Source of the DNA: an uncultured Christensenellaceae bacterium
Lineage (GTDB): Bacteria > Bacillota > Clostridia > Christensenellales > UBA3700
Assembly (NCBI GenBank): GCA_944380295.1
Contig: CALWHE010000006.1
Coordinates: forward strand, 11,670 to 75,669
Reading direction: 5' to 3'
Length of the DNA stretch: 64,000 bases
Both the position numbers and the translations under genes were made by a program. This document shows, piece by piece, positions 1 through 62,517 of this stretch (the stretch's first letter is position 1; every line of letters begins with the position of its first letter). The notes below the pieces were generated by a model. That model saw only the letters and a list, made by a program, of their open reading frames with translations, was not told the DNA's origin and did not search any database.

Positions 1-262
1 TGTTTGTTTATGATGGTAATTATGCTGGACAGATGTCTATAAGGGTGCGCGGAAGGGCGATGGATTTGCGTGCGGATTTGGACAAAGGTGCCGCAGGCAA
101 TACTTGTTGTATTGTCAAGGCGCATTTGTGCAAAGGCGTGCGTAAAGACGCGCCCTACTGCGTGCCCGCATAGCGTCTGTCCGGCAGAGAAAAATATCAC
201 GTCCTGCGCCGCCGAACATTTTTGTCGCTTTTCACTTTTGTTCGGCGGCGCAGGACATTTCT
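1..262 (+). repeat. Mosaic repeat: rod-hairpin module E (25..184) plus hairpin module H4 (201..256). The window starts inside the element.
   Basis: Nearly identical to 13060..13320 and 60745..60995. Inverted arms are ctggacagatgtctat / atagcgtctgtccgg. H4 is an 18-bp perfect stem, GTCCTGCGCCGCCGAACA / TGTTCGGCGGCGCAGGAC. Confidence 0.85.
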
Positions 263-511: not shown

Positions 512-1930
512 TCATCTCCTCCTCTTTTTGATCAGCCGTTCCTTGTCCAGCTCTATCTGCGTTTTTTTGCGTGCGGGGCGCGCCGCCGCTTCCGGACGCG
601 ACATCAGATAATAGCGCAGCGCGTCCAAGGCGTGATCGTCCTTTTTCACGGGCGTATCGCCCGCGCCCCACCAATAGCTTTTGAATTCGCGTATCAGGTT
701 CACGCAGGTGGAAAAAATCTTCAATCTGCCGCTTTTGAGATATGAACGCACGCGCGCTATGCCGGAAAAGAGGTCTTTGTTCACCTTGGGCGAAAGCGCC
801 AAGCCGCGCTCGAAAAACAGCTCCGTCACGCTCCGCTCCGCCGCCAGCGTGCGCTGGTTGGCGGCGCTGTCTATCAGCCCTTCCAGCCTGCCGTCATGCC
901 CGCGCCGCCAATTCAGCCTGTCTGCCAGCGCGTTTATGCCCTGCACGTGTTCGTCTATGCCCAACCCGGCGGCATACCACTCCCCCGTGACATACACGTT
1001 GCCGTCCCAGTCCACGGCAAAAAACAGACACGCCAAAGGGTTATGCAAGCCCGGATCCACGCTCAGTTTGTCCTGCCATTCGGGCGGCACGTCAAAGGGC
1101 GGGATCACGTGCACGCTCTGCTCGAATTCCGGATACACCGCCCCTTCCGCCTCGGAAAACATGCCGAAGCGGCGGCTGAGCAGGCTTTTTTCGTCCAGCG
1201 CGCTGCTGAGCGCCGCCACTTCCTCTTTGTCCAGCCAGGGATTGTCCGCCCACTGCATGTGGATGTGCCACACTTCCCCGTCCGCGGCGGAGTTGAGAAA
1301 GATCTTGTCATAAACCCACGTCAGTCCTTTGAGCGGGGTCATGGTGCCCCAGATGTCCCCCTTTTTGTCCAGCACGCGCATGCGGCATTCTTCATAGATG
1401 TCGCACGGCGGCTCCTCGTCGAACCACACCCAGTCCAAAGACGCGCCCTGGAATTTTTCTCTGCCCTGGTCGCAGCTTTTGAAGGATATGCGCGAAAGCC
1501 CGCCGAAGACGTTGCGCACCAAAAGATAATCGATCACGCCGCGCTCGGGCGAACTTTTTCTGCCCTCGCACATCACCACGTCCGCGATCCACTCCGGGCG
1601 CAGATAAGAGAGTATTTTGGCTTGCGCCACATCACGCTGCACCTCGAAGGAGAGCGAAACCACCCAGCCCTGGCTGTTCGGGCGGTTGGGACGGAACGGG
1701 TGGATCCCGCGCGCCGCCCACACCGCTTCCACCGCGCCGCACTCCGTTTTGCCGCTGCGGTTGCCGCCGAACACCCAGCGGTTGCGTTTGAGGCATTTGT
1801 GGAAAGCCATCTGCTTGGCGTGCACGCGCTCTACGTTGTATTCGCTCAATCTGCCCGGTGCGGCACGGCGTTTTTGCTCCCCCTCTATCGCCAAAATGCG
1901 CAGCAGGAGTTGTTTTTCCCTCTCGTCCAT
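512..1930 (-). CDS. terL: Phage terminase large subunit, apparently orphan
   Basis: Walker A GGNRSGKTE and Walker B-like WVWFDEE, with terminase-like N-terminal ATPase and C-terminal nuclease layout. I prefer ATG 1930, preceded by GGTGGAGGG, over the TTG at 1969 used by the ORF track. Confidence 0.85.
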   Translation of the reverse strand: MDEREKQLLLRILAIEGEQKRRAAPGRLSEYNVERVHAKQMAFHKCLKRNRWVFGGNRSGKTECGAVEAVWAARGIHPFRPNRPNSQGWVVSLSFEVQRDVAQAKILSYLRPEWIADVVMCEGRKSSPERGVIDYLLVRNVFGGLSRISFKSCDQGREKFQGASLDWVWFDEEPPCDIYEECRMRVLDKKGDIWGTMTPLKGLTWVYDKIFLNSAADGEVWHIHMQWADNPWLDKEEVAALSSALDEKSLLSRRFGMFSEAEGAVYPEFEQSVHVIPPFDVPPEWQDKLSVDPGLHNPLACLFFAVDWDGNVYVTGEWYAAGLGIDEHVQGINALADRLNWRRGHDGRLEGLIDSAANQRTLAAERSVTELFFERGLALSPKVNKDLFSGIARVRSYLKSGRLKIFSTCVNLIREFKSYWWGAGDTPVKKDDHALDALRYYLMSRPEAAARPARKKTQIELDKERLIKKRRR

Positions 1931-2879: not shown

Positions 2880-3478
2880 TGTCCTGCGCGGCACGGGCAG
2901 CGCGGGGCTGCACCCCTTATATACTCCGCAATAACGGGAAATCTTGACGCGGCAAACATCTTCGCAAAAACGCAAATTAGCGCAAGTGTGTTCGACGGCT
3001 CAGGACGCGATATTTTTCTCTGCCGGACAGACGCTATGCGGGCAGCGTGACGCTGCCCGCGCTTTATTGCACTTTGCCGTGTAAGTATTGCGAAAAGATC
3101 AGCCGGAAAGACGAACAAGTTACTTCAAGGCATATAATGGGTGCAGCGGCACGCTGCCCGCCACGCACGACGAGCGCGGAGCTGTATCGTCTTTCTGTCG
3201 CTCTTGCTATGTTTTATAACACTTTATTTAATGTGCCCACAGCACCGCCACGCACGACGAGCGCGGAGCTGTATCGTCGTGCATTTCACGTGCCCTCTCG
3301 TCGCTTGCGGTTTGAGGGCACATTTCACGTTTTTGCCAACTCGTTGGCAAAAACATTTCACTTTTCGGCAGAGGAAACGCGGCGCTTACGCAACCGCTAT
3401 ATCTGCCGAAAAATTTCACGTCCGAAGCGGCACGGCACCCTTTTGCTTATCGTTCATTGCCGTGCCGCGCAGGACATT
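2880..3478 (+). repeat. Mosaic intergenic repeat region: truncated E arm, P2 palindromes, F module, one heptamer-hairpin cassette
   Basis: P2 at about 3045..3062 and 3139..3160. Cassette at about 3246..3475 with ATTTCAC at about 3283, 3320, 3355 and 3412. Shares long blocks with 12460..12800 and 45520..45968. Confidence 0.85.
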
Positions 3479-3480
3479 AT

Positions 3481-3981
3481 TCACACTCTATACGCCTCAT
3501 ATTTTCTGAACGGGCACTCCTCCGCGCCTTCGGACAGCCGCTGTTTGATCAGCAACAAAAAAGGGTTTGCGCCGAACAGCTCTTTGAGCCGCGCCCCGTC
3601 ATAGCCGCGTTCCAACATGATTTTGGCAAAGGCGGAAAGCGCCGCTTCCGCGTTATAGACCACATTGCGGCGGCTGACCTTGGCAACGGCGGCGATGGTT
3701 TCATAAGTGAGCTTTTTGAAGTAACGGCAGGTCAGCATACGCCGGAATTTTTCCGCCAGTCTGCGCAAACACTCCTCCACCGCCACCTTGGCGTTGATAT
3801 AGCTCTCCTTCACTTCCACCAGGTCTTGAATGCGGCGGCACATGTCCTCCGCCGTGCGCAGACTGCGCCAGCTGCCCAGCGCCTCGTCCATCAAGCGCCT
3901 GTCCGCCTGAAACGCCGCCTCATGCAAATGCGGATACGCCGTCAAAAGCGTTTTTGCCCATAACTTCACCTCTCTTTCCAT
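3481..3981 (-). CDS. Sigma-70 region-4-like HTH protein, possibly a phage late-gene activator (RinA/ArpU-like class)
   Basis: The C-terminal segment RRMLTCRYFKKLTYETIAAVAKVSRRNVVYNAEAAL resembles sigma region 4. AAGGAG RBS lies upstream of ATG 3981. Same strand as terL and upstream of it. Confidence 0.5.
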   Translation of the reverse strand: MEREVKLWAKTLLTAYPHLHEAAFQADRRLMDEALGSWRSLRTAEDMCRRIQDLVEVKESYINAKVAVEECLRRLAEKFRRMLTCRYFKKLTYETIAAVAKVSRRNVVYNAEAALSAFAKIMLERGYDGARLKELFGANPFLLLIKQRLSEGAEECPFRKYEAYRV

Positions 3982-4059
3982 CTCTTCTCCTTTGCCGCAC
4001 GGCGGCTTTATCGGTTTGGTTTTTTTGCTATATGTTCAAAGCGCCTGCCGGCGCATTCC

Positions 4060-4540
4060 CCTTGCGGCTTTTGCCCTGCCGCGACCGGCATGCGGATAAG
4101 CGCTCCCCGGCGCAAGTCTTGTCTTACTTGCGGCAGAACGGTTTGCCACCCACGCGCTCCCCCTGCGGCTTTTGCCCTGCCGCGACCGGCATGCGGATAA
4201 GCGCTCCCCGGTGCAAGTCCGCTTATTTGCGGCAGGACGGCTTGCCACCCGCGCGCGCCCCCTGCGGCTTTTGCCCTGCCGCGACCGGCATGCGGATAAG
4301 CGCTCCCCGGCGCAAGTCTTGTCTTACTTGCGGCAGGACGGCTTGCCACCCGTGCGCCCCCTGCGGCTTTTGCCTGATGTCACCGGCATGCGGATAAGCG
4401 CTCCCCGGCGCAAGTCTTGTCTTACTTGCGGCAGGACGGCTTGCCACCCGTGCGCCCCCTGCGGCTTTTGCCCTGCCGCGACCGGCATGCGGATAAGCGC
4501 TCCCTGGTGCAAGTCTTGTCTTACTTGCAGCGTTCGGGCA
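4060..4540. repeat. Tandem array, about 98 bp x 5
   Basis: Unit ccctgcggcttttgccctgccgcgaccggcatgcggataagcgctccccggcgcaagtcttgtcttacttgcggcaggacggcttgccaccc... starts at about 4060, 4162, 4260, 4358 and 4456. Internal hairpin CGCAAGT n8 ACTTGCG. Confidence 0.9.
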
Positions 4541-4944: not shown

Positions 4945-5205
4945 TCAGCCGCCCTTCTCCGTCTGTTGCGCCGCTCCTGCCGTTGCGCATTATGCCGCCC
5001 GCCCTGCCGCTTGCTCTTTATCGCCGCCCTTCTCCGTCCGCTTGCGCTATCCCTGCCGTTGCGCATTATACCGCCCGTCCTGCCGCCTGCTCTTCTCCGC
5101 CGCCCTTCTCCGTCCGATTGCGCTATCCCTGCCCGTTGCGCATTATACCGCCCGCTCTTCTCCGCCGTTCCGCCACTTCTGTTTTTATCCGCCGCGCCGC
5201 ATTGT
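4945..5205. repeat. Degenerate tandem repeat, about 76 bp x 3-4, pyrimidine-rich on the plus strand
   Basis: Recurring gccgcccttctccgtc..gcgct.tccctgccgttgcgcattataccgcccg.cctgccgc. The frame-changing period explains the three overlapping spurious ORFs listed here. Confidence 0.8.
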
Positions 5206-8035: not shown

Positions 8036-8160
8036 ATCAGCGGCTGGGGGTGCCTCCGAGGAGGCTGAGAGAGTCCCTTTGAACTTGGTCAAGGTAATTC
8101 TTGCGAAAGGAAGCAAAATCGGAAATGTTTTCTTAAAGTTCCTTCAGCCGAAGGAGTTTT
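8036..8160 (+). ncRNA. TPP (THI-box) riboswitch with expression platform
   Basis: ctgggggtgcc..ggCTGAGAgagtccctttGAACttGgtCaaggTAATtcttGCGaaAGGAAgc matches the THI-box core. Downstream hairpin TCCTTC agcc GAAGGA plus T7 sequesters the GGAG RBS just before ATG 8164 of a thiamine transporter. Confidence 0.85.
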
Positions 8161-8163
8161 TTT

Positions 8164-9300
8164 ATGTTCAACGCTTTGTTATGCGCCGCCGAGTATGTGA
8201 ATTTTTTCAACTTCGATTCCCTGCTCGGCACCACCGTGTGCGTGGGTCTTATCCTGATGGGCGCGGCAATACTTGCCAACCTCATCGTGTTTTTCGCCGC
8301 CCGCAGTAAATTTAAGCTCTCCGTGCTTGTGAGCGTGCTGCTCGTGCTGCTTTACCTGATCGTGGTCATCATTCTCAATATCCGCGACACGGCAAAAGAC
8401 GGCGGCTTTGAGTCGGGCAACACCGGTATGAGCGAGGAAGACGAAAACGGCATCGTCATATTCAACACCTCAAACGCCGTGTGGATCTCCGTGGCGGTGA
8501 TCGTGGTATTCGGCGCGCTCATCGCCCTGCTGCTCATCGACCGTAAAAAAGTTTCGCCGCGCGCCCACACCCTGGCCGTGGTTTACGCCGCGCTCTCCGT
8601 GGCGCTGGGCACGGGACTTTCTTACCTGAAAATGTTCGACGCCCCTTACGGCGGCTCCATCACCCTCTTCGGCTTGCTGCCCATCGCCCTCTATTCCTAT
8701 ATGTTCGGCGTGCGCCGCGGCACGCTGGCGGGCTTTATCTACGGGCTTTTGCAGCTGTTGCAGGGACCTAACATCCTGCACCCCGCGCAATTCTTCCTGG
8801 ACTATATCATCCCCTTTGCCGTGGTGGGCGCCTGCGGCGGCGTTTTCCGCCCGCTTACGGAGCGCTCCAAGCTCTCCCCCGTCCTCAAAGGCGTGGTGGG
8901 ACTTTCAAGCGGCATTGTGCTGGGCATTTTGCTGCGCTATCTCTTCCACGTCATCTCCGGCGCGGTCTTCTTCGGCGAATACGCGGGCGAATACGGCTTT
9001 GACAACGCCTGGGCTTACTCCGCCGCTTACAACGCCCTCTACGTGTTCCCCGACGGCGCCATCTGCCTCTTCGGCGGACTGCTGCTCATGCTCAGCTCTT
9101 CCTTCCGCGGACAGACTGACAGGGTGACGGCGGCGTTCAGAAAGAGCGCGGCAAAGCCCGCCTTTGCGGCGCAGACGGCAGGAGCGGAAGCTCCCGCGCA
9201 GGAAAACGCGCCCGCCGCACAGGCGCAGGACAACGCACAGCCCGCGCAAGAGGCGCAGGAAAACGCCGCCGCAGAAGATCGGGATCGGAACGCGCGCTGA
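8164..9300 (+). CDS. thiT: Thiamine transporter ThiT (ECF S-component) with an extra N-terminal TM region and a low-complexity C-terminal tail
   Basis: Residues about 145-300 match ThiT/YuaJ-type sequence (YGGSITL, LDYIIPF, FFGEYA, AYN..Y..P). About 140 extra N-terminal residues with TM helices. Ala/Gln/Glu-rich tail. TPP riboswitch upstream. Confidence 0.8.
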   Translation: MFNALLCAAEYVNFFNFDSLLGTTVCVGLILMGAAILANLIVFFAARSKFKLSVLVSVLLVLLYLIVVIILNIRDTAKDGGFESGNTGMSEEDENGIVIFNTSNAVWISVAVIVVFGALIALLLIDRKKVSPRAHTLAVVYAALSVALGTGLSYLKMFDAPYGGSITLFGLLPIALYSYMFGVRRGTLAGFIYGLLQLLQGPNILHPAQFFLDYIIPFAVVGACGGVFRPLTERSKLSPVLKGVVGLSSGIVLGILLRYLFHVISGAVFFGEYAGEYGFDNAWAYSAAYNALYVFPDGAICLFGGLLLMLSSSFRGQTDRVTAAFRKSAAKPAFAAQTAGAEAPAQENAPAAQAQDNAQPAQEAQENAAAEDRDRNAR

Positions 9301-12124: not shown

Positions 12125-13335
12125 AAAGAGAAAAAGGATAAGGCGGGTCCCGTTTTCAACGGGATCTGCCTTTTCCTCTTTCGCTTCCTGAAAGACAACC
12201 CCGGCATTCGCAATCGACATAATCATTCCAATATACTTTTATTCAGGGTGCAGCGTCACGCTGCCTCCGCCCCCTACACCGTGAAATCGATTGCTTGAGC
12301 CGCGGTTTTCTCTCTTTTTGCGGAACACGATATCGCATATCGCGCTTGGTCTTGCCGCAAAAATTCACTCTTTCCGCCCTCATTCGCTCCGCGCGCTCCG
12401 CTCATTCGGAAAATGCGCACGGCGCATTTTAGAGGTAACGCTTGGCAAAAGTGTGATTTTGCCGCGCTTTATTACACTTTGCTACGGAAGCATTACGAAG
12501 AGATTAGCCGGATAAACGAACAAGTGACTTCAAGGCATATAATGGGTGCAGCGGCACGCTGCCCGCCACGTCCGCGATGCGCCGTGCTATGCACGGCAGT
12601 ATGAGCGGACATTTCACGTGCCCTCTCGTCGCTTTGCGGTTTGATGGCACATTTCACGTTTTTGCCAACTCGTTGGCAAAAACATTTCACTTTTCGGCAG
12701 AAAAAACGCGGCGCTTGCGCAACCGCTATATCTGCCGAAAAATTTCACGTCCGTAGCGGCACGGCACACTTTCGTTTATAGATTTTGCCGTGCCGCGCAG
12801 GACATAAAGGGGTGGAGCGCCCCGCGCTCCGGGCGCAGCATTATATTCTAATAACGCCGCAGGCAGCCGCCACGCACGACGAGCGCGGAGCTGTATCGTC
12901 GTGCATTTCACGTGCCCTCTCTGTGAGCGCGCAAGTTCTTCACATTGCGGTCACATATGATCGGGGTGCAGCGTCACGCTGCTTTGAGGGCACATTTCAC
13001 GTTTTTGCCAAGGTGTTGGCAAAAACATTTCACTTTTGCGCGGTTGGCATATCATATATGTTTGTCTATGATGATAATTATGCCGGACAGACGTCTATAA
13101 GGGTGCGCAGGAGAGTGATGGATTTGCGTGCGGATTTGGACAAATGTGCCGCAGGCAATACTTGTTGTATTGTCAAGGCGCATTTGTGCAAAGGCGTGCG
13201 TAAAGACGCGCCCTACTGCGTGCCCGCATAGCGTCTGTCCGGCAGAGAAAAATATCACGTCCGGAGCAAGGGCACATTTCTTCGCTTATCGCTCATTGTG
13301 CCCTTGCGCAGGACATAAAGCGCTCCTGCCCGCTT
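12125..13335 (+). repeat. Mosaic intergenic repeat region: module L, then two heptamer-hairpin cassettes, the second carrying module E
   Basis: L at 12125..12565. Cassettes at 12565..12803 and 12805..13315. ATTTCAC at about 12610, 12650, 12685, 12742, 12903, 12990 and 13030. E at 13083..13242. Confidence 0.9.
12142..12182. terminator. Bidirectional terminator-like hairpin at the start of repeat module L
   Basis: GGCGGGTCCCGTT ttc AACGGGATCTGCC followed by a T-rich run and preceded by an A-rich run. The same hairpin module follows the aminotransferase gene (about 29430..29470) and rnj (about 36960..37010). Confidence 0.7.
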
Positions 13336-17549: not shown

Positions 17550-18645
17550 AACAGGGTGCAGCGTCACGCTGCCCGCCGCGCTTTTATAGTGCTTTATTAA
17601 GTATTGCGAAGAGATACGCTTACTACCACTTCCCGCCTCTGCGAAGCATATCAGAGTGCAGCGTCACGCTGCCCGCGCTTTTATTGCACTTTATCAAGTA
17701 TTGCAGGGAATAACGCTTACTACCACTTCCCGCCTCTGCGAAGCATATCAGGGTGCAGCGGCACGCTGCCCGCACCTTCCCGGCACGGCGATAAGCGCCG
17801 TTTCTATCTGTATATTATCGGACAAGCGGCTTTGACAATGTCCGGGAACAGGGCGAAAAAACGCCGTGCTGCGAAAGTGCAAAGAGTGGCACCTCGGAGT
17901 AAAGCATAGTTTTTGCGCAGCATAACAAGGGGTGGAGCGCCCCGCGCTCCGGGTGCAGCGTTATACTCGAATAGCGCCGCAGGTAGCCATCACGCACGAC
18001 GAGCGCGGAGCTGTATCGTCGTGCATTTCACGTGCCCTCTCGTCGCTTGCGGTTTGAGGGCACATTTCACGTTTTTGCCAACTCGTTGGCAAAAACATTT
18101 CACTTTTGCGCAGCAGTATATGTTCGCTTATCGCTCACTTATATCTGCGCAAAAATTTCACGTCCGCAGCCGCCGAACATAGCTTTCGCTTATTGATTTT
18201 GTTCGGCGGCGCAGGACATAAAGGGGTGGAGCGCCCAGCGCTCCTCTACTTATATTATAACACGGAAAACCGCGGTTTTTGAGATGAGAGTGCAAAATTT
18301 TTTTTGCAAAACCACAAAAAACCTTCCCCATAGGCGGCAATTTTGCCTCGCGCGACGCGCGTTATATCTTTTTTCTTTTTCTTGTTTTTTCTCTTTTTCT
18401 TCGACTTTTGCTTTATCTTTCTCTTCTTTGAAGAAAAAGAAAAGGGGGGTTTGGGGGGAAAGGAAAAGGAGCGTGACGGGAGCGCGGGGCGGCAGCGTGA
18501 CGGGAGCGCGGGGCGCTCCACCCCCTGTTATGCTTCGCAGAGATAAACCATGATCGCGGAGCGTTTCTCTTCACAAAACCAATATTTGTTTGCGGCAGAA
18601 TGCCGATAAGCGCGGCTCTTCCCACAAGCGGCATATGCGGTTCGG
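17550..18645 (+). repeat. Mosaic intergenic repeat region
   Basis: P2 palindrome plus about 75 nt repeated with a 97-100 nt period at 17552, 17652 and 17749. Cassette at 17929..18217 with four ATTTCAC. P1 boxes at about 17929, 18222 and 18500. Pyrimidine/purine tract at 18365..18475. Confidence 0.9.
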
Positions 18646-22701: not shown

Positions 22702-22721
22702 CGGTATCCTCCATTATGTCC

Positions 22722-23590
22722 TGCGCAAGGGCACAATGAGCGATAAGCGAACTTGTGCGCCCTTGCTTCGGACGTGAAATTTTTGCGCGGATATATGCGA
22801 GCGGCAAGCGAGCATAACTGCCGCGCAAAAGTGAAATGTTTTTGCTTTATAAAGCAAAAACGTGAAATGTGCTCTTAAACCGCTCCGCGACGAAAGAGCA
22901 CGTGAAATGTCCGCTCATACTGCCTCGCAAGGCGAGCCGCATCGCGGACGTGGCGGCTGCCTGCGGCGCTATTAGAATATAATGCTGCACCCGGAGCGCG
23001 GGGCGCTCCACCCCTGATCGTGCCTTGAAGTAACTTTCCCGTCTGTCCGGCTGACCTCTTCGCAACTCTTACACAATATAGTGTAATAAAGCGCGGCAAA
23101 ATCGCACTTTTGCCAAGCGTCACCTCTAAAATGCGCCGTGCGCATTTTCCGAGTGAGCGGAGCGCGCGGAGCGGCAGCGTGCCGGGAGCGGCAGCGTGCC
23201 GGGAGCGCGGGGCGCTCCACCCCTGATCGTGCCTTGAAGTCACTTTCCCGTCTGTCCGGCTGACCTCTTCGCAACTCTTACACAGTAAAGTGTAATAAAG
23301 CGCGGGCAGCGTGCCGGGAGCGCGGGGCGCTCCACCCCTGATCGTGCCTTGAAGTCACTTTTCCGTCTGTCCGGCTGACCTCTTCGCAATGCTTACACAA
23401 TAAAGTGTAATAAAGCGCGGGCAGCGTGACGCTGCACCCTGGTAAGTGTAATATCCCGCCGTCCAAAACCGCGCTTTTGGACGAGCGCACCTTGGGCAAG
23501 GCGACTGCCTTGCGCGCCGCTCCCGCGGCGGCGGAAAGGGGTGAAGTTTTGCGGCTAACGCTTGCGCGCTTTCTTATATCTTGCCGCAAA
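22722..23590 (-). repeat. Mosaic repeat region between ilvC and ilvD
   Basis: Cassette at 22726..23014, with GTGAAAT on the plus strand at about 22770, 22830, 22862 and 22902. Three tandem F modules, each ending in a P1 or P2 box, at 23015..23445. Module G at 23450..23530. Confidence 0.9.
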
Positions 23591-28439: not shown

Positions 28440-29482
28440 TGATAACATAAGCGCGCGTGTATGTCAAGAAAGCAGAATTATGTCCTGCACAAGGGCGCAA
28501 TGAGCGATAAGCGAAGAAATGCGCCCTTGCTCCGGACGTGAAATTTTTGCGCAGATATAAGTGAGCGGTAAGCGAACATAACTTCCGCGCAAAAGTGAAA
28601 TGTTTTTGCCAACTCGTTGTCAAAAACGTGAAATGTGCCCTCAAACCGCAGAGCGACGAGAGAGCACGTGAAATGTTTGCTCATACTGCCGCAAAGCGGC
28701 GCATCGCAAACGTGGCGGCTGCCTGCGGCGCTATTAGAGTATAATGCTGCACCCGGAGCGCGGGGCGGTCCACCCCTTTATGTCCTGCGCCGCCAAACAA
28801 GAGTGAAAAGCGACAAAAATGTTTGGCGGCTCCGGACGTGAAATTTTTGCGCAGATATAAATAAGCGGTAAGCGAACGTATAATGCTGCGCAAAAGTGAA
28901 ATGTTTTTGCCTCGCAAGGCAAAAACGTGAAATGTGCCCTCAAACCGCAAGCGACGAGAGGGCACGTGAAATGTTTGCTCATACTGCCGCAAAGCGGCGC
29001 ATCGCAAACGTGGCGGCTGCCTGCGGCACTATTAGAATATAATGCTGCACCGGAGCGCGGGGCGCTCCACCCCTTACACGCCTTGACGTCACTTTTCTGT
29101 ATTTTCAGCCAATCGCTTTGCAATACCTACCCAATTAAGTGTAATAAAGCGCGGCAAAATCACATTTTTGCCAAGCGTCACCTCAAAAATGCGCCGTGCG
29201 CATTTTCCGAATGAGCGGAGCACGCGAAGCGAATGAGGGCGGAAAGAGTGAATTTTTGCGGCACGACCAAGCGCGCCACGAGATTACGCCGCCCGCAAAA
29301 AGAGAGAAAACCGCGGCTCAAGCAATCGAATCCGCGGCAAAGTGGCGGAGGCAGCGCGGTGCTGAACTCTAAATAAAATTATATTGGAATGATAATGTCG
29401 ATTGCGAATGCCGGGGTTGTCTTTCGGGAAGCGAAAAATGAAAGGGCAGTTTCCGTTGTAAACGAAAACCGCCCTATCCCTT
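28440..29482 (-). repeat. Mosaic repeat region: two head-to-tail heptamer-hairpin cassettes plus module L
   Basis: Cassettes at 28478..28776 and 28778..29073. L at about 29075..29482, ending in the terminator hairpin next to the aminotransferase stop. Confidence 0.92.
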
Positions 29483-36069: not shown

Positions 36070-37030
36070 CGCTCTTATTATAGCAATTCTCCGCGAACAA
36101 GTAAAGGGAGTGCGGGGCGGGCAGCGTGACGCTGCACGCTTTATGTCCTGCGCAAGGGCGCAATGAGCGATAAGCGAAGAAATGCGCCCTTGCTCCGGAC
36201 GTGATATATTTTGCCGTGACAGACATATGAAATAAGCGTAAAAACACCAAACGGCAAAATGCGATATGTCGGCTACGCCGACGCGATATGTCCTGCGCGG
36301 CACGGCAAAGTCAATAAGCAAAAGTGTGCCGTGCCGCTCCGGACGCGATATTTTTGCGCGGATATATGTGAGCGGCAAGCGAACATAACTTCCGCGCAAA
36401 AGCGAAATGTTTTTGCCTTGCAAGGCAAAAACGTGAAATGTGCTCTTAAACCGCTCCGCGACGAAAGAGCACGTGAAATGTTTGCTCATACTGCCACAAA
36501 GCGGCGCATCGCAAACGTGGCGGCTGCCTGCGGCGCTATTAGAGTATAATACTGCACCCCTAATAAAGTGTAATAAAGCGCAGCAAAATCGCACTTTTGC
36601 CAAGCGTCACCTCTAAAATGCGCCGTGCGCATTTTCCGAATGAGCGGAGCGCGCGGAGCGGCAGCGTGACGCTGCACCCTGATAAATATAATATACCGCC
36701 GTCCAAAACCGCGCTTTTGGACGAGCGCACCTTGGGCAAGGCGACTGCCTTGCGCGCCGCTTCGCGGCGGCGGAAAGAGTGAATTTTTGCGGTAAGACCA
36801 AGCGCGATACGAGATTACGCCGCCCGCAAAAAGAGAGAAAACCGCGGCTCAAGCAACCGATTTCACGGCAAAGTGGCGGAGGCAGCGTGATGCTGCACCA
36901 CAATTAAAAGTATATTGGGAATGATAATATCGATTGCGAATGCCGGGGTTGTCTTTCGAGAAGCGAAAGAGGAAAAGGCAGTTCCCGTTTGTAACGGGAA
37001 AAGCCTTATCCTTTTTCTCTTTCGCTTATT
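36070..37030 (-). repeat. Mosaic repeat region between rnj and the methyltransferase gene
   Basis: Degenerate cassette at 36141..36560, with heptamer variants GTGATAT, GCGATAT and GCGAAAT as well as GTGAAAT at 36433 and 36473. Module G at about 36690..36765. Module L at about 36560..37030 with its terminator hairpin next to the rnj stop. Confidence 0.9.
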
Positions 37031-42989: not shown

Positions 42990-43262
42990 TCGGAAGCGCG
43001 GCTGACGTTGTTTCAAGCGCGCGACCGGGCGTTGTTTCAAGCGCGCGGCTGGCGTTGTTTCCAAACGCACGGCAACCGGAAGCGCGGGCATTGCTTTCAA
43101 ACACACGGCAACCGGAAGCGCGGGCGTTGCTTCAAGCGCGCGGCGATCGAAATCGCGGGCGTTGTTTCAAGCGCGCGGCGATCGAAAGCGCGGGCGTTGC
43201 TTTCAAGCGCACGGCAACCGGAAGCGCGGGCATTGCTTTCAAACGCACGGCAAAGAGCGCAA
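42990..43262. repeat. Degenerate tandem repeat, 27-40 bp units, about 7-8 copies
   Basis: Recurring gcg(t/a)tg(t/c)tt(t)caa(g/a)cgc(g/a)cgg[cgatcgaaa / caaccggaa]gcgcggg. Confidence 0.85.
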
Positions 43263-45109: not shown

Positions 45110-45968
45110 TTAAATATTATTTACGAATTTTGCGGATACTCCGCCGCGAATATTATATCATCAACCGGGCAAAAAAGTAAACAAAATAAACGTGGTTTCT
45201 GCCCCTGCCGCAAAGCGGCGTATCGCAAACGTGACGGGCAGCGTGCCGCTGCACCCGGAGCGCGGGGCGCTCCGCCCCTTACACGCCTTGACGTTGCTTT
45301 TCCGTTTGTTCTGCTAATCTCTTCGCAATACTTCCATATCAAAGTGTAATAAAGCGCGGCAAAATCGGCAATGTTACGCTGTCTTGCGCGCCGGCTGTTT
45401 TGGACGGCGGGAAGTCACACTTTTAAGACTATGCGATGCAAAGAGATGAAGTAAGTAATGTAAATGAAGTTACTTCAAGGCGTATAAGAGTGCAGCATGT
45501 TTCTGTCGCTCTTGCCACGCTCTATTACACTTTATTAAGAGCGAGTATTGCAAAAAGATCAGACGGAAAGACGAACAAGTTACTTCAAGGCTTGATCAGG
45601 GGTGGAGCGCCCCGCGCTCCGGGTGCAGCGTCACGCTGCCGCCCCGCGCTCCCCGCCACGCACGACGAGCGCGGAGCTGTATCGTTTTTCTGTCGCTCTT
45701 GCTATGTTTTATCGCATTTTATTTAATGTGCCCACAGCACCGCCACGCACGACGAGCGCGGAGCTGTATCGTCGTGCATTTCACGTGCCCTCTCGTCGCT
45801 TTGCGGTTTGAGGGCACATTTCACGTTTTTGCCTTGCAAGGCAAAAACATTTCACTTTTGCGCGGAAGTTATGCTCGCTTTCCGCTCACATATATCCGCG
45901 CAAAAATTTCACGTCCGGAGCCGCCAAACATTTTTGTCGCTTTTCACTCTTCTTTGGCGGCGCAGGAC
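45110..45968 (+). repeat. Mosaic repeat region between pckG and clpC; its last hairpin overlaps the clpC 3' end
   Basis: P1/P2 boxes at about 45228..45275 and 45599..45660. F module at about 45500..45600. Cassette at about 45640..45968 with four ATTTCAC. Confidence 0.9.
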
Positions 45969-50514: not shown

Positions 50515-51000
50515 CCGCCCTTGCGCCGCCTTTTTGTCCGCCTTGCGCTTTGCCCCGCCTGGCTTTTGCCCTAGCTTTGCTTTCCGTTCCGCTTGGCTCT
50601 TGCTCTGCGCTCCGGCTTGGCTTTCGCTCTTGCGTTACGCTCATGCTTGGCTTTTGCCCTGCGTTGCGTTCTGCCCGGCTCTTGCCCTGCGTTGTATTCC
50701 GCTCCGCTTTGGCTTTTGCTCTTGCGTTCCGTTCGGCTCTTGCTTTGCTTTGCGTTCCGCTTGGTCTTTGCCTCGCGTTGCGTTCCGCCCGGCTCTTGCC
50801 CTGCGTTGTATTCCGCTCCGCTTTGGCTTTTGCTCTTGCGTTCCGTTCGGCTCTTGCTTTGCGTTCCGCTTGGTCTTTGCCTCGCGTTGCGCTCCGCCCG
50901 GCTCTTGCTCTGCGTTTCCGCCCCGCTCTTACCTTACATTGCGTTCCGCTTGGTCTTTTCGGTCGTCCGACAGCTCCCTTTGCCTTGTCGCGTTTTTTCG
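50515..51000. repeat. About 490 nt of degenerate tandem repeats between the CtsR-box promoter and ctsR
   Basis: About 110-nt unit seen twice nearly intact at about 50660..50770 and 50771..50880. Shorter gcgttccgcttgg(c/t)ctt.gc-type subrepeats occur throughout. T/C-rich on plus, purine-rich on the transcribed strand. Confidence 0.85.
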
Positions 51001-54419: not shown

Positions 54420-55190
54420 AAATGTAAAATACGAATTATGTCCTGCGCGTCGGCTGTTTCGGACGGTGGCAGCGTGACGCTGCACCCTTGATATGCTTCG
54501 CAGCAGCGTGACGCTGCACCCTTTATATGCTTCTCAGCAGCGTGACGCTGCACCCTTTATATGCTTCTCAGTGCCGGAACCGTCGGTTATCGAGGCTCTT
54601 CGCACTGGTATTTGTCGGGTATATGATGATACTAATGGCGGGCAGGCGCTGTTAAGGGCGCGCGGCTGTATCGACTTTCTGTCGCTCTTACTATGTTTAT
54701 AACATTTAATTTGATGTGCCCACAGCACCGCAACGTCCGCGATGCGCCGTGCTATGCACGGCAGTATGAGCGGGCATTTCACGTGCCCTCTCGTCGCTTG
54801 CGGTTTGAGGGCACATTTCACGTTTTTGCCAACTCGTTGGCAAAAACATTTCACTTTTGCGCGGTTGTCATATTTCATGTGTTTGTTTATGATGACAATT
54901 ATGCCGGACAGACGTCTATAAGGGTGCGCAGAAGGGCGATGGATTTGCGTGCAGGTTTGGACGGCGGGGACGCGGCAATACTTGCCCGGTTTATAACGAT
55001 ACGCTGTTTCCAATAACTATTAATGCCGGGCAGGCGCTGTTAAGGACATGCGGGAGGGCGATGGATTTGCGTGCAGGTTTGGACGGCGGGGACGCAGGTA
55101 ATACTCTTGCGGTATTATCAAGTCCCCGCCGTTCAAAGATGTGCGTAAAGCCGCGCCCTACCGCGTGCCCTTAACAGCGCCTGTCCGGCA
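54420..55190 (+). repeat. Mosaic repeat region between ppdK and recO; overlaps the recO 3' end
   Basis: Three tandem P2 units at 54469..54571. Truncated cassette with ATTTCAC at about 54775, 54815 and 54850. Half E copy from 54904. Variant E copy at 55026..55189. Confidence 0.9.
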
Positions 55191-60179: not shown

Positions 60180-60995
60180 CATATGCGGAAGGGGAAAAGG
60201 TTATGTCCTGCGGCAGCGTGACGCTGCACCCTTTATGTCCTGCGCAAGGGCGCAATGAGCGATAAGCGAAAGTATGCGCCCTTGCTCCGGACGTGAAATT
60301 TTTGCGCGGACAGCGTGCCGCTGCACCCCGATATACTCCGTAGCTGCAAAAAAGCAACCACTCAACACAACACTTCGCACATATATGATATTGCGATAAG
60401 CGAACATAACTTCCGCGCAAAAGCGATATGTCGGCTGCGCCGACGCGATATGTCCTGCGCCGCCAAACAAAAGCGAAAAGCGATAAAAATGTTTGGCGGC
60501 TTCGGACGCGATATATTTTGCCGTAACAAACGTATTGAGTAACCGCACTGTATCGAACTGCAAAATGTAAAGGCTGCCTGCGGCGCTGTTTGAAATTGCA
60601 AAGGCAGCGTGGCGCTGCACCCCTTATGCGCTTCGCAGCAATGTAAAATACCGATAAGCGTTACTCTTCGCAACAACAATATGTGATTTGCGGCAAAATG
60701 CCGCAAGATACCGCCGCATTTTGCCGTTTGGCACATCTTATGTGTTTGTTTATGATGGTAATTATGCTGGACAGATGTCTATAAGGGTGCGCGGAAGGGC
60801 GATGGATTTGCGTGCGGATTTGGACAAAGGTGCCGCAGGCAATACTTGTTGTATTGTCAAGGCGCATTTGTGCAAAGGCGTGCGTAAAGACGCGCCCTGC
60901 TGCGTGCCCGCATAGCGTCTGTCCGGCAGAGAAAAATATCGCGTCCAGAGCAAGGGCGCACAAGTTCGCTTATCGCTCATTGCGCCCTTGCGCAG
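60180..60995. repeat. Mosaic repeat region between dnaB and yqfC, with mixed orientations
   Basis: P2 at about 60210, 60310 and 60600. Minus-oriented H4 and H3 modules with GCGATAT-type heptamers at 60222..60530. Plus-oriented E (60767..60926) and H4 (about 60940..60992) ending 10 nt before the dnaB stop. Confidence 0.9.
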
Positions 60996-61002
60996 GACAC
61001 TC

Positions 61003-62517
61003 TCACTCTTCCACCGGCGGCAGTTCGTCCATCACGTCCGGCAGGTTATCCTGTTCCGGGGGCACGTCCTCGTCGCTGTAAGTGACGGTATAGCTCTCTT
61101 CCGCGGCGACTTCCTGCTTTTTGGCGACCGTGGCGAAAGAGGAGCCGGGGTTATTGGTTTCCGTGAACTTCATCTTGTCGCCGTTAAAGATGAAGTTGAG
61201 CGTGCCGGTGGGACCGTTGCGGTGTTTTGCCACGATCAGCTGCACGTTTTTGACCGCCGTATCCACGTTATCCTTGGGACGGTGGATAAACATGACCACG
61301 TCCGCGTCCTGCTCTATCGCGCCCGATTCGCGCAGGTCGGAGAGCTTGGGCTCCACCGTCACGGCGGAGTCTTTATTGTCCTGTTCGCGCTTTTCCACGT
61401 CACGCGACATCTGCGAAAGCAGGATGACGGGCACGCCCAGCTCTTTGGCGATGACCTTCATGCCGCGGGAGATATCCGCCACTTCCTGTTGGCGGGAAGC
61501 ATTGCGCTTTTTGTCCTTCACGGTCATCAGCTGCAAGTAGTCCACCACCACCAGGTCCAGCCCGCCCATCTTCTTTTTCAGGGTGCGGCACTTGTGCAAA
61601 ATATCCTCGTGCGAGAGGTTGACCGTATCGTCCAGATAGAGATTGGAAGGCGCGAGATAATTGGACACGCTCCACATGCGCGTCCAATCGGCGCCGTCTT
61701 CCTGACCCTTGACGATCGTTTGCATGCCCACGTCGCTCATGTTGACCAGAATGCGCTGGGCAAGTTCCGTGGCGGACATTTCCAGGTTGAACACCGCCAC
61801 CACCTTTTTCTTGTCGTTTTTGAGGACGTTGCTCACCACGTTGAGCGCAAACGCCGTTTTACCAAGACCCGGTCTGGCGGCGACGATGATTATCTGACCG
61901 GGCAAAAAGCCGTTGAGCAGATTGTCCAGGTTGTTGAAGCCGGAGCGCAAGCCCTCCGCCCCTTTTTTGTGCGAAAACACGTCGTTGAGCCTGACCATGA
62001 GCTGCGCCATGGGCACGCTCACGTGTTGCAGATCGCCCTCCGCCGTCTGCGTGCCCAAATCGAAAAACTGCGCCTCGGCAAAGGCGCGCACGCTGTCCAC
62101 GTTATCGTCGCTGTAAGCGCGCTCCACAATGGCGTTGGCGCGGCGTATCATGGTGCGCAGCATGCCGTCGCGCTTGACGATGGAGAAATAATATTGCGCG
62201 TTGGCGGTGGAAGCGATGCTGTCCGTCAGCGCCTCGATGGCGCCGGCGCCGCCCACCGCGTCCAGCTCTCCCTTGCGGTTAAGCCTGCTCATCACGGCGA
62301 TGGCGTCCACGGAAGCGCCGCTCTCGCGGGCGAGTTCCGTTATCACTTTGAAGATCTTTTTATGCGCCACGGCATAAAAATCGTCCTCGCTCAGACCGGG
62401 GAGAAACTCCGAACACTTTTCGTTATCCAGCAGCATGGCGGCAAGCACCGCCTGTTCCGCCTCGTAACTGTTGGGCATCACGCGCAGGCTTACCCCTTCC
62501 GTTTTTTTCTCAGGCAT
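61003..62517 (-). CDS. dnaB: Replicative DNA helicase (DnaB family) with an acidic C-terminal tail of about 50 aa
   Basis: N-terminal DnaB domain and RecA-like core with Walker A ARPGLGKT. GGAGG RBS. Confidence 0.96.
   Translation of the reverse strand: MPEKKTEGVSLRVMPNSYEAEQAVLAAMLLDNEKCSEFLPGLSEDDFYAVAHKKIFKVITELARESGASVDAIAVMSRLNRKGELDAVGGAGAIEALTDSIASTANAQYYFSIVKRDGMLRTMIRRANAIVERAYSDDNVDSVRAFAEAQFFDLGTQTAEGDLQHVSVPMAQLMVRLNDVFSHKKGAEGLRSGFNNLDNLLNGFLPGQIIIVAARPGLGKTAFALNVVSNVLKNDKKKVVAVFNLEMSATELAQRILVNMSDVGMQTIVKGQEDGADWTRMWSVSNYLAPSNLYLDDTVNLSHEDILHKCRTLKKKMGGLDLVVVDYLQLMTVKDKKRNASRQQEVADISRGMKVIAKELGVPVILLSQMSRDVEKREQDNKDSAVTVEPKLSDLRESGAIEQDADVVMFIHRPKDNVDTAVKNVQLIVAKHRNGPTGTLNFIFNGDKMKFTETNNPGSSFATVAKKQEVAAEESYTVTYSDEDVPPEQDNLPDVMDELPPVEE

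Follow-up and report, generated by a model that had tools for sequence, protein, structure and literature searches.

The REP/BIME elements of enterobacteria and pseudomonads are high-copy, intergenic, imperfect palindromes, which occur as mosaics, on both strands and at the ends of genes in operons. Their stem sequence is less constrained than its pairing, they carry a conserved 5' GTAG flank and they are associated with RAYT proteins (Y1 transposases). The BOX elements of Streptococcus pneumoniae and the intergenic mosaic elements of Neisseria are assembled from few module types in variable number and, in the Neisseria elements, variable non-hairpin blocks are separated by a constant palindromic repeat of 20 bp. 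The attC sites, which are recognised as a fold, have inverted core sites (RYYYAAC ... GTTRRRY) and are located behind each cassette gene, near an integrase.

A further motif, Gut-1 (Rfam RF01706), has the consensus hairpin-GUGAAAU-hairpin-GUGAAAU-hairpin-GUGAAAU. It was described as known only from human-gut metagenomes and as probably a non-coding RNA, with no function given (Weinberg et al. 2010, PMC2864571), and its published seed alignment also includes GUGAUAU linkers and inverted AUAUCAC arrays (PMC2864571). In our search of the literature for the heptamer and for Gut-1, the 2010 paper alone was found.

In the window, i.e. the whole 64-kb stretch of DNA that was analysed, we observed a repeat unit of about 230 bases composed of five stem-loops, with a near-invariant 7-base linker between them. 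Once the copies are oriented on the GTGAAAT strand, the order of the hairpins is fixed as H4-H3-H2-H1-H0, and the heptamer bounds each of them. The hairpins are 24-56 nt long, with internal loops, and each full array contains at least five. Overall, 11 full or partial arrays and three lone H4 modules map to intergenic spacers on both strands (Table 1), a density of about one array per 6 kb in this Christensenellales-like genome; eight arrays are full, two start inside H3 (C and J) and one is rearranged (K). The spacers that bear arrays are unusually long (0.6-1.3 kb, about 8.5 kb of the 64 kb when summed) and are flanked by housekeeping genes, among them ilvBCD, clpC, der, era-recO and the genes for PEP carboxykinase, pyruvate phosphate dikinase and RNase J.

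Table 1. Hairpin arrays and lone H4 modules in the window; the H4 end is given for the full arrays.
Feature	Coordinates	Strand	H4 end	Composition	Remarks
Array A	3252..3475	-	3475	full	H4 starts 5 nt past the stop codon of gene 3481-3981
Array B	12570..12803	-	12803	full	uncompensated A.G mismatch in H1
Array C	12874..13043	-		partial (3' arm of H3, then H2, H1, H0)	~50 nt of another repeat inserted in H1 loop
Array D	17994..18217	-	18217	full	
Array E	22718..22949	+	22718	H4-H3-H2-H1-H0	H4 end 17 nt upstream of the minus-strand ilvD start codon
Array F	28482..28711	+	28482	full, chimeric	mismatches in H4, H3, H2 and H1; flipped H2 loop
Array G	28782..29009	+	28782	full	tandem with F, 300-bp period
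Array H	36145..36516	+	36145	extended: H4, H3', H5, H4, H3, H2, H1, H0	linkers GTGATAT, GCGATAT, GCGAAAT
Array I	45747..45968	-	45968	full	clpC reading frame ends within its H4
Array J	54735..54864	-		partial (3' arm of H3, then H2, H1, H0)	
Array K	60237..60570	+		H4, H3, H5, second H4, H3'-like start	right end uncertain; ~90-nt insertion in H3 loop; linkers GCGATAT
Lone H4	201..256	-		H4 module, then GTGATAT	
Lone H4	13259..13314	-		H4 module	82 nt ahead of where the MMPL transporter gene starts
Lone H4	60943..60998	-		H4 module	starts 4 nt past the stop codon of gene 61003-62517

Specifically, the segment 22862-22908 consists of a GTGAAAT heptamer (22862-22868), the hairpin H1 (22869-22901) and a second GTGAAAT (22902-22908), and belongs to array E. 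This H1 is 33 nt long and reads GTGCTCTT AAACCGCTCCGCGACGA AAGAGCAC. The common form of H1, GTGCCCTC...GAGGGCAC, was found five times in the window, and the variant form, GTGCTCTT...AAGAGCAC, twice (22869-22901 and 36440-36472, the H1 of array H being identical to that of array E), while shuffled sequences contained neither. These counts bear out the two H1 alleles that an earlier note on this DNA had reported at these sites, and all of the H2, H3 and H4 stem variants quoted there were likewise located. The inventory of that note, H1 to H4, stands but is one hairpin short, since it missed H0, which covaries at four of its six pairs.

Departures from the regular order were also detected. The arrays at 36.2 kb and 60.4 kb contain additional modules, namely the short hairpin GTCGGCTRCGCCGAC, another H4 and an H3 of alternative type, and the H2 loop of array F is flipped relative to the linker, reading CTCG and not CGAG. 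Another repeat, starting CAGCGTGMCGCTGCACCCCGAT, is inserted in the H1 loop of array C (~12925-12985) and in the H3 loop of array K (~60309-60400) with the stems intact; thus, hairpin loops serve as insertion sites and the stems survive. A module of about 110 bp with the palindrome TTACAC-N6-GTGTAA adjoins many arrays; it is present at ~22975-23420 in three tandem copies, as compared to one copy in another strain (L002). Additional repeated intergenic segments, without heptamer arrays, map to 4057-4528, 4945-5155, 43048-43253 and 50555-50958. In the window, a TPP riboswitch (8036-8128, + strand), with a score of 62.9 bits that exceeds the threshold, immediately precedes the gene of a thiamine transporter (Thia_YuaJ, 8164-9300). 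The gene at 512-1930 (- strand) carries the N- and C-terminal domains of a terminase large subunit, which suggests that the left edge of the window contains the remains of a phage.

With respect to the surrounding genes, nine arrays or lone H4 modules have their H4 end turned towards the gene next to them, and in the two tandem pairs the H4 of the second array abuts the tail of its partner. When H4 lies on the same strand as the gene, it starts 4-5 nt past the stop codon (genes 3481 and 61003); on the opposite strand, it lies 17-126 nt before the start codon. The clpC frame runs 25 nt into the H4 of array I (45944-45968) and ends at a TGA in the loop, so that the repeat supplies the last eight clpC codons. 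With regard to the flanking genes, the orientations that place AUUUCAC in the sense transcript prevail by 7:3. With regard to the replication strand, six arrays are on - and five on +, under a uniform, monotonic GC skew, and there is no bias; for this reason, and given that there is no TnpA or TnpB gene in the window, a derivation from IS200/IS605 elements was rejected. A MITE was dismissed because the H4 and H0 ends are not inverted copies and no duplication is visible at the junctions, and the idea of terminal inverted repeats was discarded since H4 ends are present at both sides in only two of the nine array-bearing spacers.

The comparison with REP/BIME elements reveals a clear likeness. 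The arrays of the window are high-copy, intergenic or intercistronic, imperfect palindromes arranged in mosaics, placed on both strands and at gene ends, and their pairing is constrained more than their stem sequence. Unlike in REP/BIME elements, the flank is GYGAWAT on both sides of each hairpin, and not GTAG, and several different hairpins follow one another in a set order. The scan of window proteins revealed neither a RAYT nor any other transposase or integrase. With the BOX and Neisseria elements the arrays share a modular, intergenic architecture with few module types in variable number and, with the latter, the separation of blocks by a constant short repeat. The module sequences differ and, in contrast to Neisseria, the constant part is here a non-palindromic linker of 7 nt and the variable blocks are hairpins. 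A fold, rather than a sequence, as the thing recognised is what the arrays have in common with attC; true integron attC sites were excluded by flanks that are direct repeats, by the housekeeping neighbours and by the lack of an integrase among the window proteins scanned. CRISPR and type III antitoxin arrays, as well as attC sites and terminators, were in addition ruled out by anatomy.

The Gut-1 covariance model hit seven arrays of the window, all on the GTGAAAT strand, at 25.9-33.5 bits, which fall short of the curated threshold of 50 bits. The arrays show three or more hairpins with GUGAAAU linkers, as Gut-1 does; with five long hairpins and scores below 50 bits, they follow the Gut-1 design in a long-stem variant, but by the Rfam criterion they lie outside the family. 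Both are hairpin series with GUGAAAU linkers (GUGAUAU variants being present in the Gut-1 seed) and covarying stems, from uncultured gut bacteria. By contrast, Gut-1 has three hairpins of about 12-16 nt, whereas at least five hairpins of greater length and with internal loops are present here. Shorter arrays detected in seven other loci, from metagenomes and genomes of other lineages (L050, L102, L112, L116, L166, L180 and L190) score 50.9-78.3 bits, over the Gut-1 threshold. Gut-1 was treated as a non-coding RNA gene (PMC2864571), whereas both the arrays of the window and the true Gut-1 arrays behave as multi-copy intergenic repeats on both strands. In L166 (3500-6150), which belongs to another lineage, all of the ruvC-ruvA-ruvB-queA spacers are occupied by true Gut-1 arrays; these form inverted pairs on either side of an AT-rich core and have GTTGTGG/CCTCAAC tails. 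In L050, from a further lineage, two Gut-1 arrays of 78 bits (2237-2312 and 3054-3130) lie one behind each of two paralogous microcompartment shell-protein genes, in what resembles an operon of the pdu/eut type.

The linker is the conserved element of the arrays. The 10-mer ACGTGAAATG occurs 40 times in the window with at most one mismatch, as compared to 4.2 occurrences expected. The earlier note had described the flanking heptamers as constant; this has to be corrected, since GTGATAT, GCGATAT and GCGAAAT replace GTGAAAT at 36201-36408 and 60423-60514, and the linker is better written as a degenerate GYGAWAT, mostly GTGAAAT. In the aligned arrays, the per-site diversity is 0.015 in the linkers, 0.20 in the stems and 0.30 in the loops; the stems are therefore nearly as diverse as the loops, and yet remain paired. 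Moreover, the linker is kept in lineages with arrays whose GC contents range from 36 to 68%. From these sequences, the linker is best explained as the sequence-specific, nearly invariant part of the element, and the stems as constrained only to pair. To our knowledge, no factor binding the linker is known, and we infer that some factor reads it. When pairs or triplets of the linker were used as search patterns, most matches were heptamer microsatellites or unrelated tandem repeats, and few loci were useful. Long GTGAAAC/GTGAAAT microsatellites were seen in Bacteroidota, Chlorobi, Ignavibacteria and other assemblies (L006, L010, L013, L025, L045, L073, L090 and others), and appear to be unrelated to the hairpin arrays.

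As far as the stems are concerned, four compensated H1 alleles adopt the same fold, at -7.6 to -9.6 kcal/mol with DNA parameters, and the fold is lost in a chimera of two H1 alleles. For both strands, the predicted fold of the whole array is far more stable than that of shuffled sequences (z = -5.3 and -5.2). The + strand fold and the two centroid structures leave the linkers unpaired. Covariation was assayed on an alignment of 15 arrays (eight from the window, one from another strain, five from Ca. Caccalectryoclostridium excrementigallinarum and one metagenomic), in which 51 pairs in seven helices were scored; shuffles, and partners slid by 1-3 columns, served as controls. Standard pairs made up 96.9% of the cells, compared to 84.5% in the shuffles and 37-55% with slid partners. 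Changes on both sides were observed at 24 of the 51 pairs, as opposed to 15.0 +/- 1.7 in the shuffles, none of 500 of which reached 24, and the covariation score was 0.365, compared to 0.06-0.10 with slid partners. The proposal that the stems diverge on both arms while pairing is kept is hence supported beyond both the shuffled and the register-shifted controls. That the fold is selected or recognised, as had also been suggested, is supported as far as a constraint on pairing is concerned; selection, structure-directed copying and repair all fit the data.

The association between arms defines the unit that is copied. Arms of the same hairpin, 17-32 nt apart, showed a normalised mutual information of 0.75-1.0 (p <= 0.001) in H4, H3, H1 and H0, and a lower one in H2 (0.61, p = 0.13), while for arms on the two sides of a linker, only 7-14 nt apart, values of 0.31-0.65 were obtained (p from 0.24 to 0.61). 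Since arms are associated within a hairpin and not across a linker, whole-element subfamilies copied intact are excluded: the copied unit is the hairpin, not the array. The combination of alleles is different in each of the eight full arrays of the window. The earlier note had named a few subfamilies, each copied as a whole, as the finding that would undo its reading. The few alleles are there, with three to five main types per hairpin and identical ones at several loci; the copying of whole arrays is not.

This reshuffling is compatible with the mobility of DNA cassettes, in which a single-strand enzyme (an HUH/Y1 transposase of the RAYT or IS200/IS605 type, or an integrase-like recombinase) would recognise any hairpin beside GYGAWAT and cut and join at the linker, the fold being kept as its substrate. 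Such an enzyme would explain why modules reshuffle at linkers while their arms stay together, why module number and order vary between arrays and why the linker is retained over so wide a range of GC contents. Two 98%-identical strains (L166 and L109) differ by the presence or absence of one module and its linker (50 nt), exactly between linkers, and by other modules replaced in place, as this model would have it; however, the indel is bounded by an 11-nt direct repeat, GCGTGAAATGC, so that slippage or short-homology recombination explains it equally well. The window proteins scanned provide no transposase or integrase for the task, the even distribution over the replication strands is unlike that of IS200/IS605-type elements, and no two arrays are identical over their full length, which argues against a recent burst of copying. 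Weighing these points and the patchy distribution described below, which favours the model, we consider cassette mobility unlikely.

Within the hairpins, there are at least eight sites at which a single compensated base pair distinguishes near-identical alleles. Compensated sites include positions 4, 5 and 7 of H4, position 9 of H3, positions 2 and 8 of H1 and position 7 of H2; mispaired intermediates were also observed at several of them, and in H1 a transversion-type compensation, from C-G to A-T, was detected. Near-identical alleles set apart by one compensated pair indicate that stepwise compensation is real. The independent compensatory events are modest in number, far below the count of varying cells, because alleles were copied between loci and reshuffled.

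The same alleles could, on the other hand, have arisen with no selection on the fold, if originally palindromic sequences had been spread by gene conversion and re-perfected by template switching (quasipalindrome correction), the compensatory pattern being a by-product of DNA mechanics during replication. Few main alleles shared among loci would be expected from such a process. Several copies, including array F, array B and the H4 of array E, have uncompensated mismatches or chimeric arms, and the chimeric hairpins reveal that arms are separated by recombination. The H2 loop that reads both CGAG and CTCG represents a flip at the DNA level, and three H4 stems that are unrelated in sequence are yet joined with related loops. 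It is difficult to reconcile this process with the single compensated pairs, transversions included, and linkers 13 times less variable than stems point instead to a functional constraint on the whole element. In addition, the loops of the short Gut-1 hairpins are strand-asymmetric (TNC, TTGC), which DNA symmetry alone does not predict. When perfect palindromy was assayed on H2, two of 13 alleles were palindromic through the centre, not above chance. We therefore rate an origin free of fold selection as rather improbable.

The arrays are specific to certain lineages. In relatives with 92% and 83% identical IlvD, no arrays were found in the ~20 kb and ~15 kb, respectively, around ilvD, and three orthologous spacers of the 92% relative measure 93-182 bp, compared to 1.0-1.3 kb here. 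These empty sites have no spacer sequence in common with the window. The comparison shows that the presence of the arrays is specific to the lineage, in which the copies were most likely gained. In a strain of the same species, the array upstream of ilvD is identical save for the inner stem of H4, which changes from the AAGGGCGCA type to the GGCACGGCA type. Near-identical arrays are present in Ca. Caccalectryoclostridium (Christensenellaceae), in which the sole gene in common with the window is about 54% identical in protein and may be no ortholog. With arrays in this genus and none in closer relatives (15-20 kb examined), the distribution is patchy, as cassette mobility would predict. A pattern specific for H2 gave no match in representative genomes, among which the source organism is not included; its absence, and a shorter H2 in other species, account for the miss. 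Four IlvD homologues (P0005-P0007 and P0009; L003-L005, L231) are called at 629-682 aa compared to about 554 aa; near the one long IlvD examined (P0007 in L227) no heptamer arrays were found. A large number of contigs from this species terminate at an array or within one, showing that the repeats break assemblies.

If the fold acts in RNA, its strand becomes relevant. On the GTGAAAT strand, uncompensated stem mismatches comprise 12 A.C and 3 G.T (p = 0.035, with cells that are not independent). This excess of A.C runs counter to what would be tolerated in an RNA that has the Rfam orientation of Gut-1; an assignment of the strand from the wobble test was nevertheless rejected as too weak, the counts being small and non-independent. 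The short Gut-1 hairpin loops read mostly TGC, TAC, TTC and TTGC on the GTGAAAT strand, a TNC and TTGC bias, and on the opposite strand they read as GNA triloops and GCAA tetraloops. There are thus hints, from small and non-independent counts, that ATTTCAC may be the folding strand, opposite to the Rfam annotation, and the strand assigned to Gut-1 in Rfam may deserve a check.

Repeated single-stranded motifs between hairpins are also what stand-alone small RNA genes, the type under which Rfam lists Gut-1, would display, if the arrays were transcribed on their own and their GUGAAAU sites titrated a protein in the manner of CsrB/RsmZ, and one metagenomic array (L179) lies directly behind a promoter-like sequence, TTGCAT-17-TATAAT, read by eye. 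About 11 arrays in 64 kb, on both strands and abutting or overlapping coding ends, speak against such genes, as do their absence from sister taxa and the scan of one window spacer, between ilvC and ilvD, in which no promoter-like site was found and terminator-like sites were not above chance; the 2010 paper offers no evidence of promoters or terminators either. Small RNA genes of this kind are, in our view, very unlikely.

The account that we prefer, and whose chances we regard as evenly balanced, is that of a REP/BIME-like modular hairpin repeat, a long-stem variant of Gut-1, which is constrained in its fold, exchanges modules by gene conversion and acts as stem-loops in transcripts. According to this account, the copies would be a non-coding interspersed repeat, with hairpin modules strung on a GYGAWAT linker that is single-stranded in the fold predictions. 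Gene conversion would swap entire hairpin modules between arrays, the breakpoints falling in the conserved linker junctions of 12-19 nt. Since the single-stranded fold matters, a change on one arm of a module would either disappear or be compensated on the other. The linker would be read by sequence and the stems by shape. Of this account, the anatomy, the covariation, the reshuffling of modules, the presence restricted to certain lineages and the conservation of the linker are shown by the sequences. The constraint would then probably be selection on an RNA fold, most likely that of stem-loops which flanking genes carry in their transcripts, where they would protect or process the ends of cistrons. 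The occurrence of both orientations relative to genes (7 vs 3), the lack of a promoter in the spacer, the A.C mismatches and the modest number of events all argue against this account.

It is also conceivable, although we consider it decidedly unlikely, that the heptamer is the working site of a dedicated factor across many lineages, either a single-strand recombinase or an operon-punctuating RNA endonuclease or binding protein. In the recombinase version, one possibility would be that non-coding hairpin modules are moved as cassettes, by an attC-like or IS200-like system without genes.

In conclusion, Gut-1 has remained since 2010 a structured-RNA candidate that lacks both a function and a cultured host. 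The arrays of the window, together with the true Gut-1 arrays in operon spacers, recast the motif as modular interspersed hairpin repeats, and the rule that emerges from the window is that the linker is kept in sequence, the stems are kept only in pairing and the modules are exchangeable. In practical terms, these repeats break metagenome assemblies and extend gene calls, as in the case of clpC, whose frame ends within a hairpin. Handles toward the reader of the linker are provided by the linker itself, by the boundaries between modules and by the gene-facing H4 end. If a factor dedicated to the heptamer exists, it would give the orphan Gut-1 motif a mechanism, and Gut-1 would be a system of modular repeats that is genome-wide and whose annotated strand is possibly the wrong one, and not a small-RNA gene.
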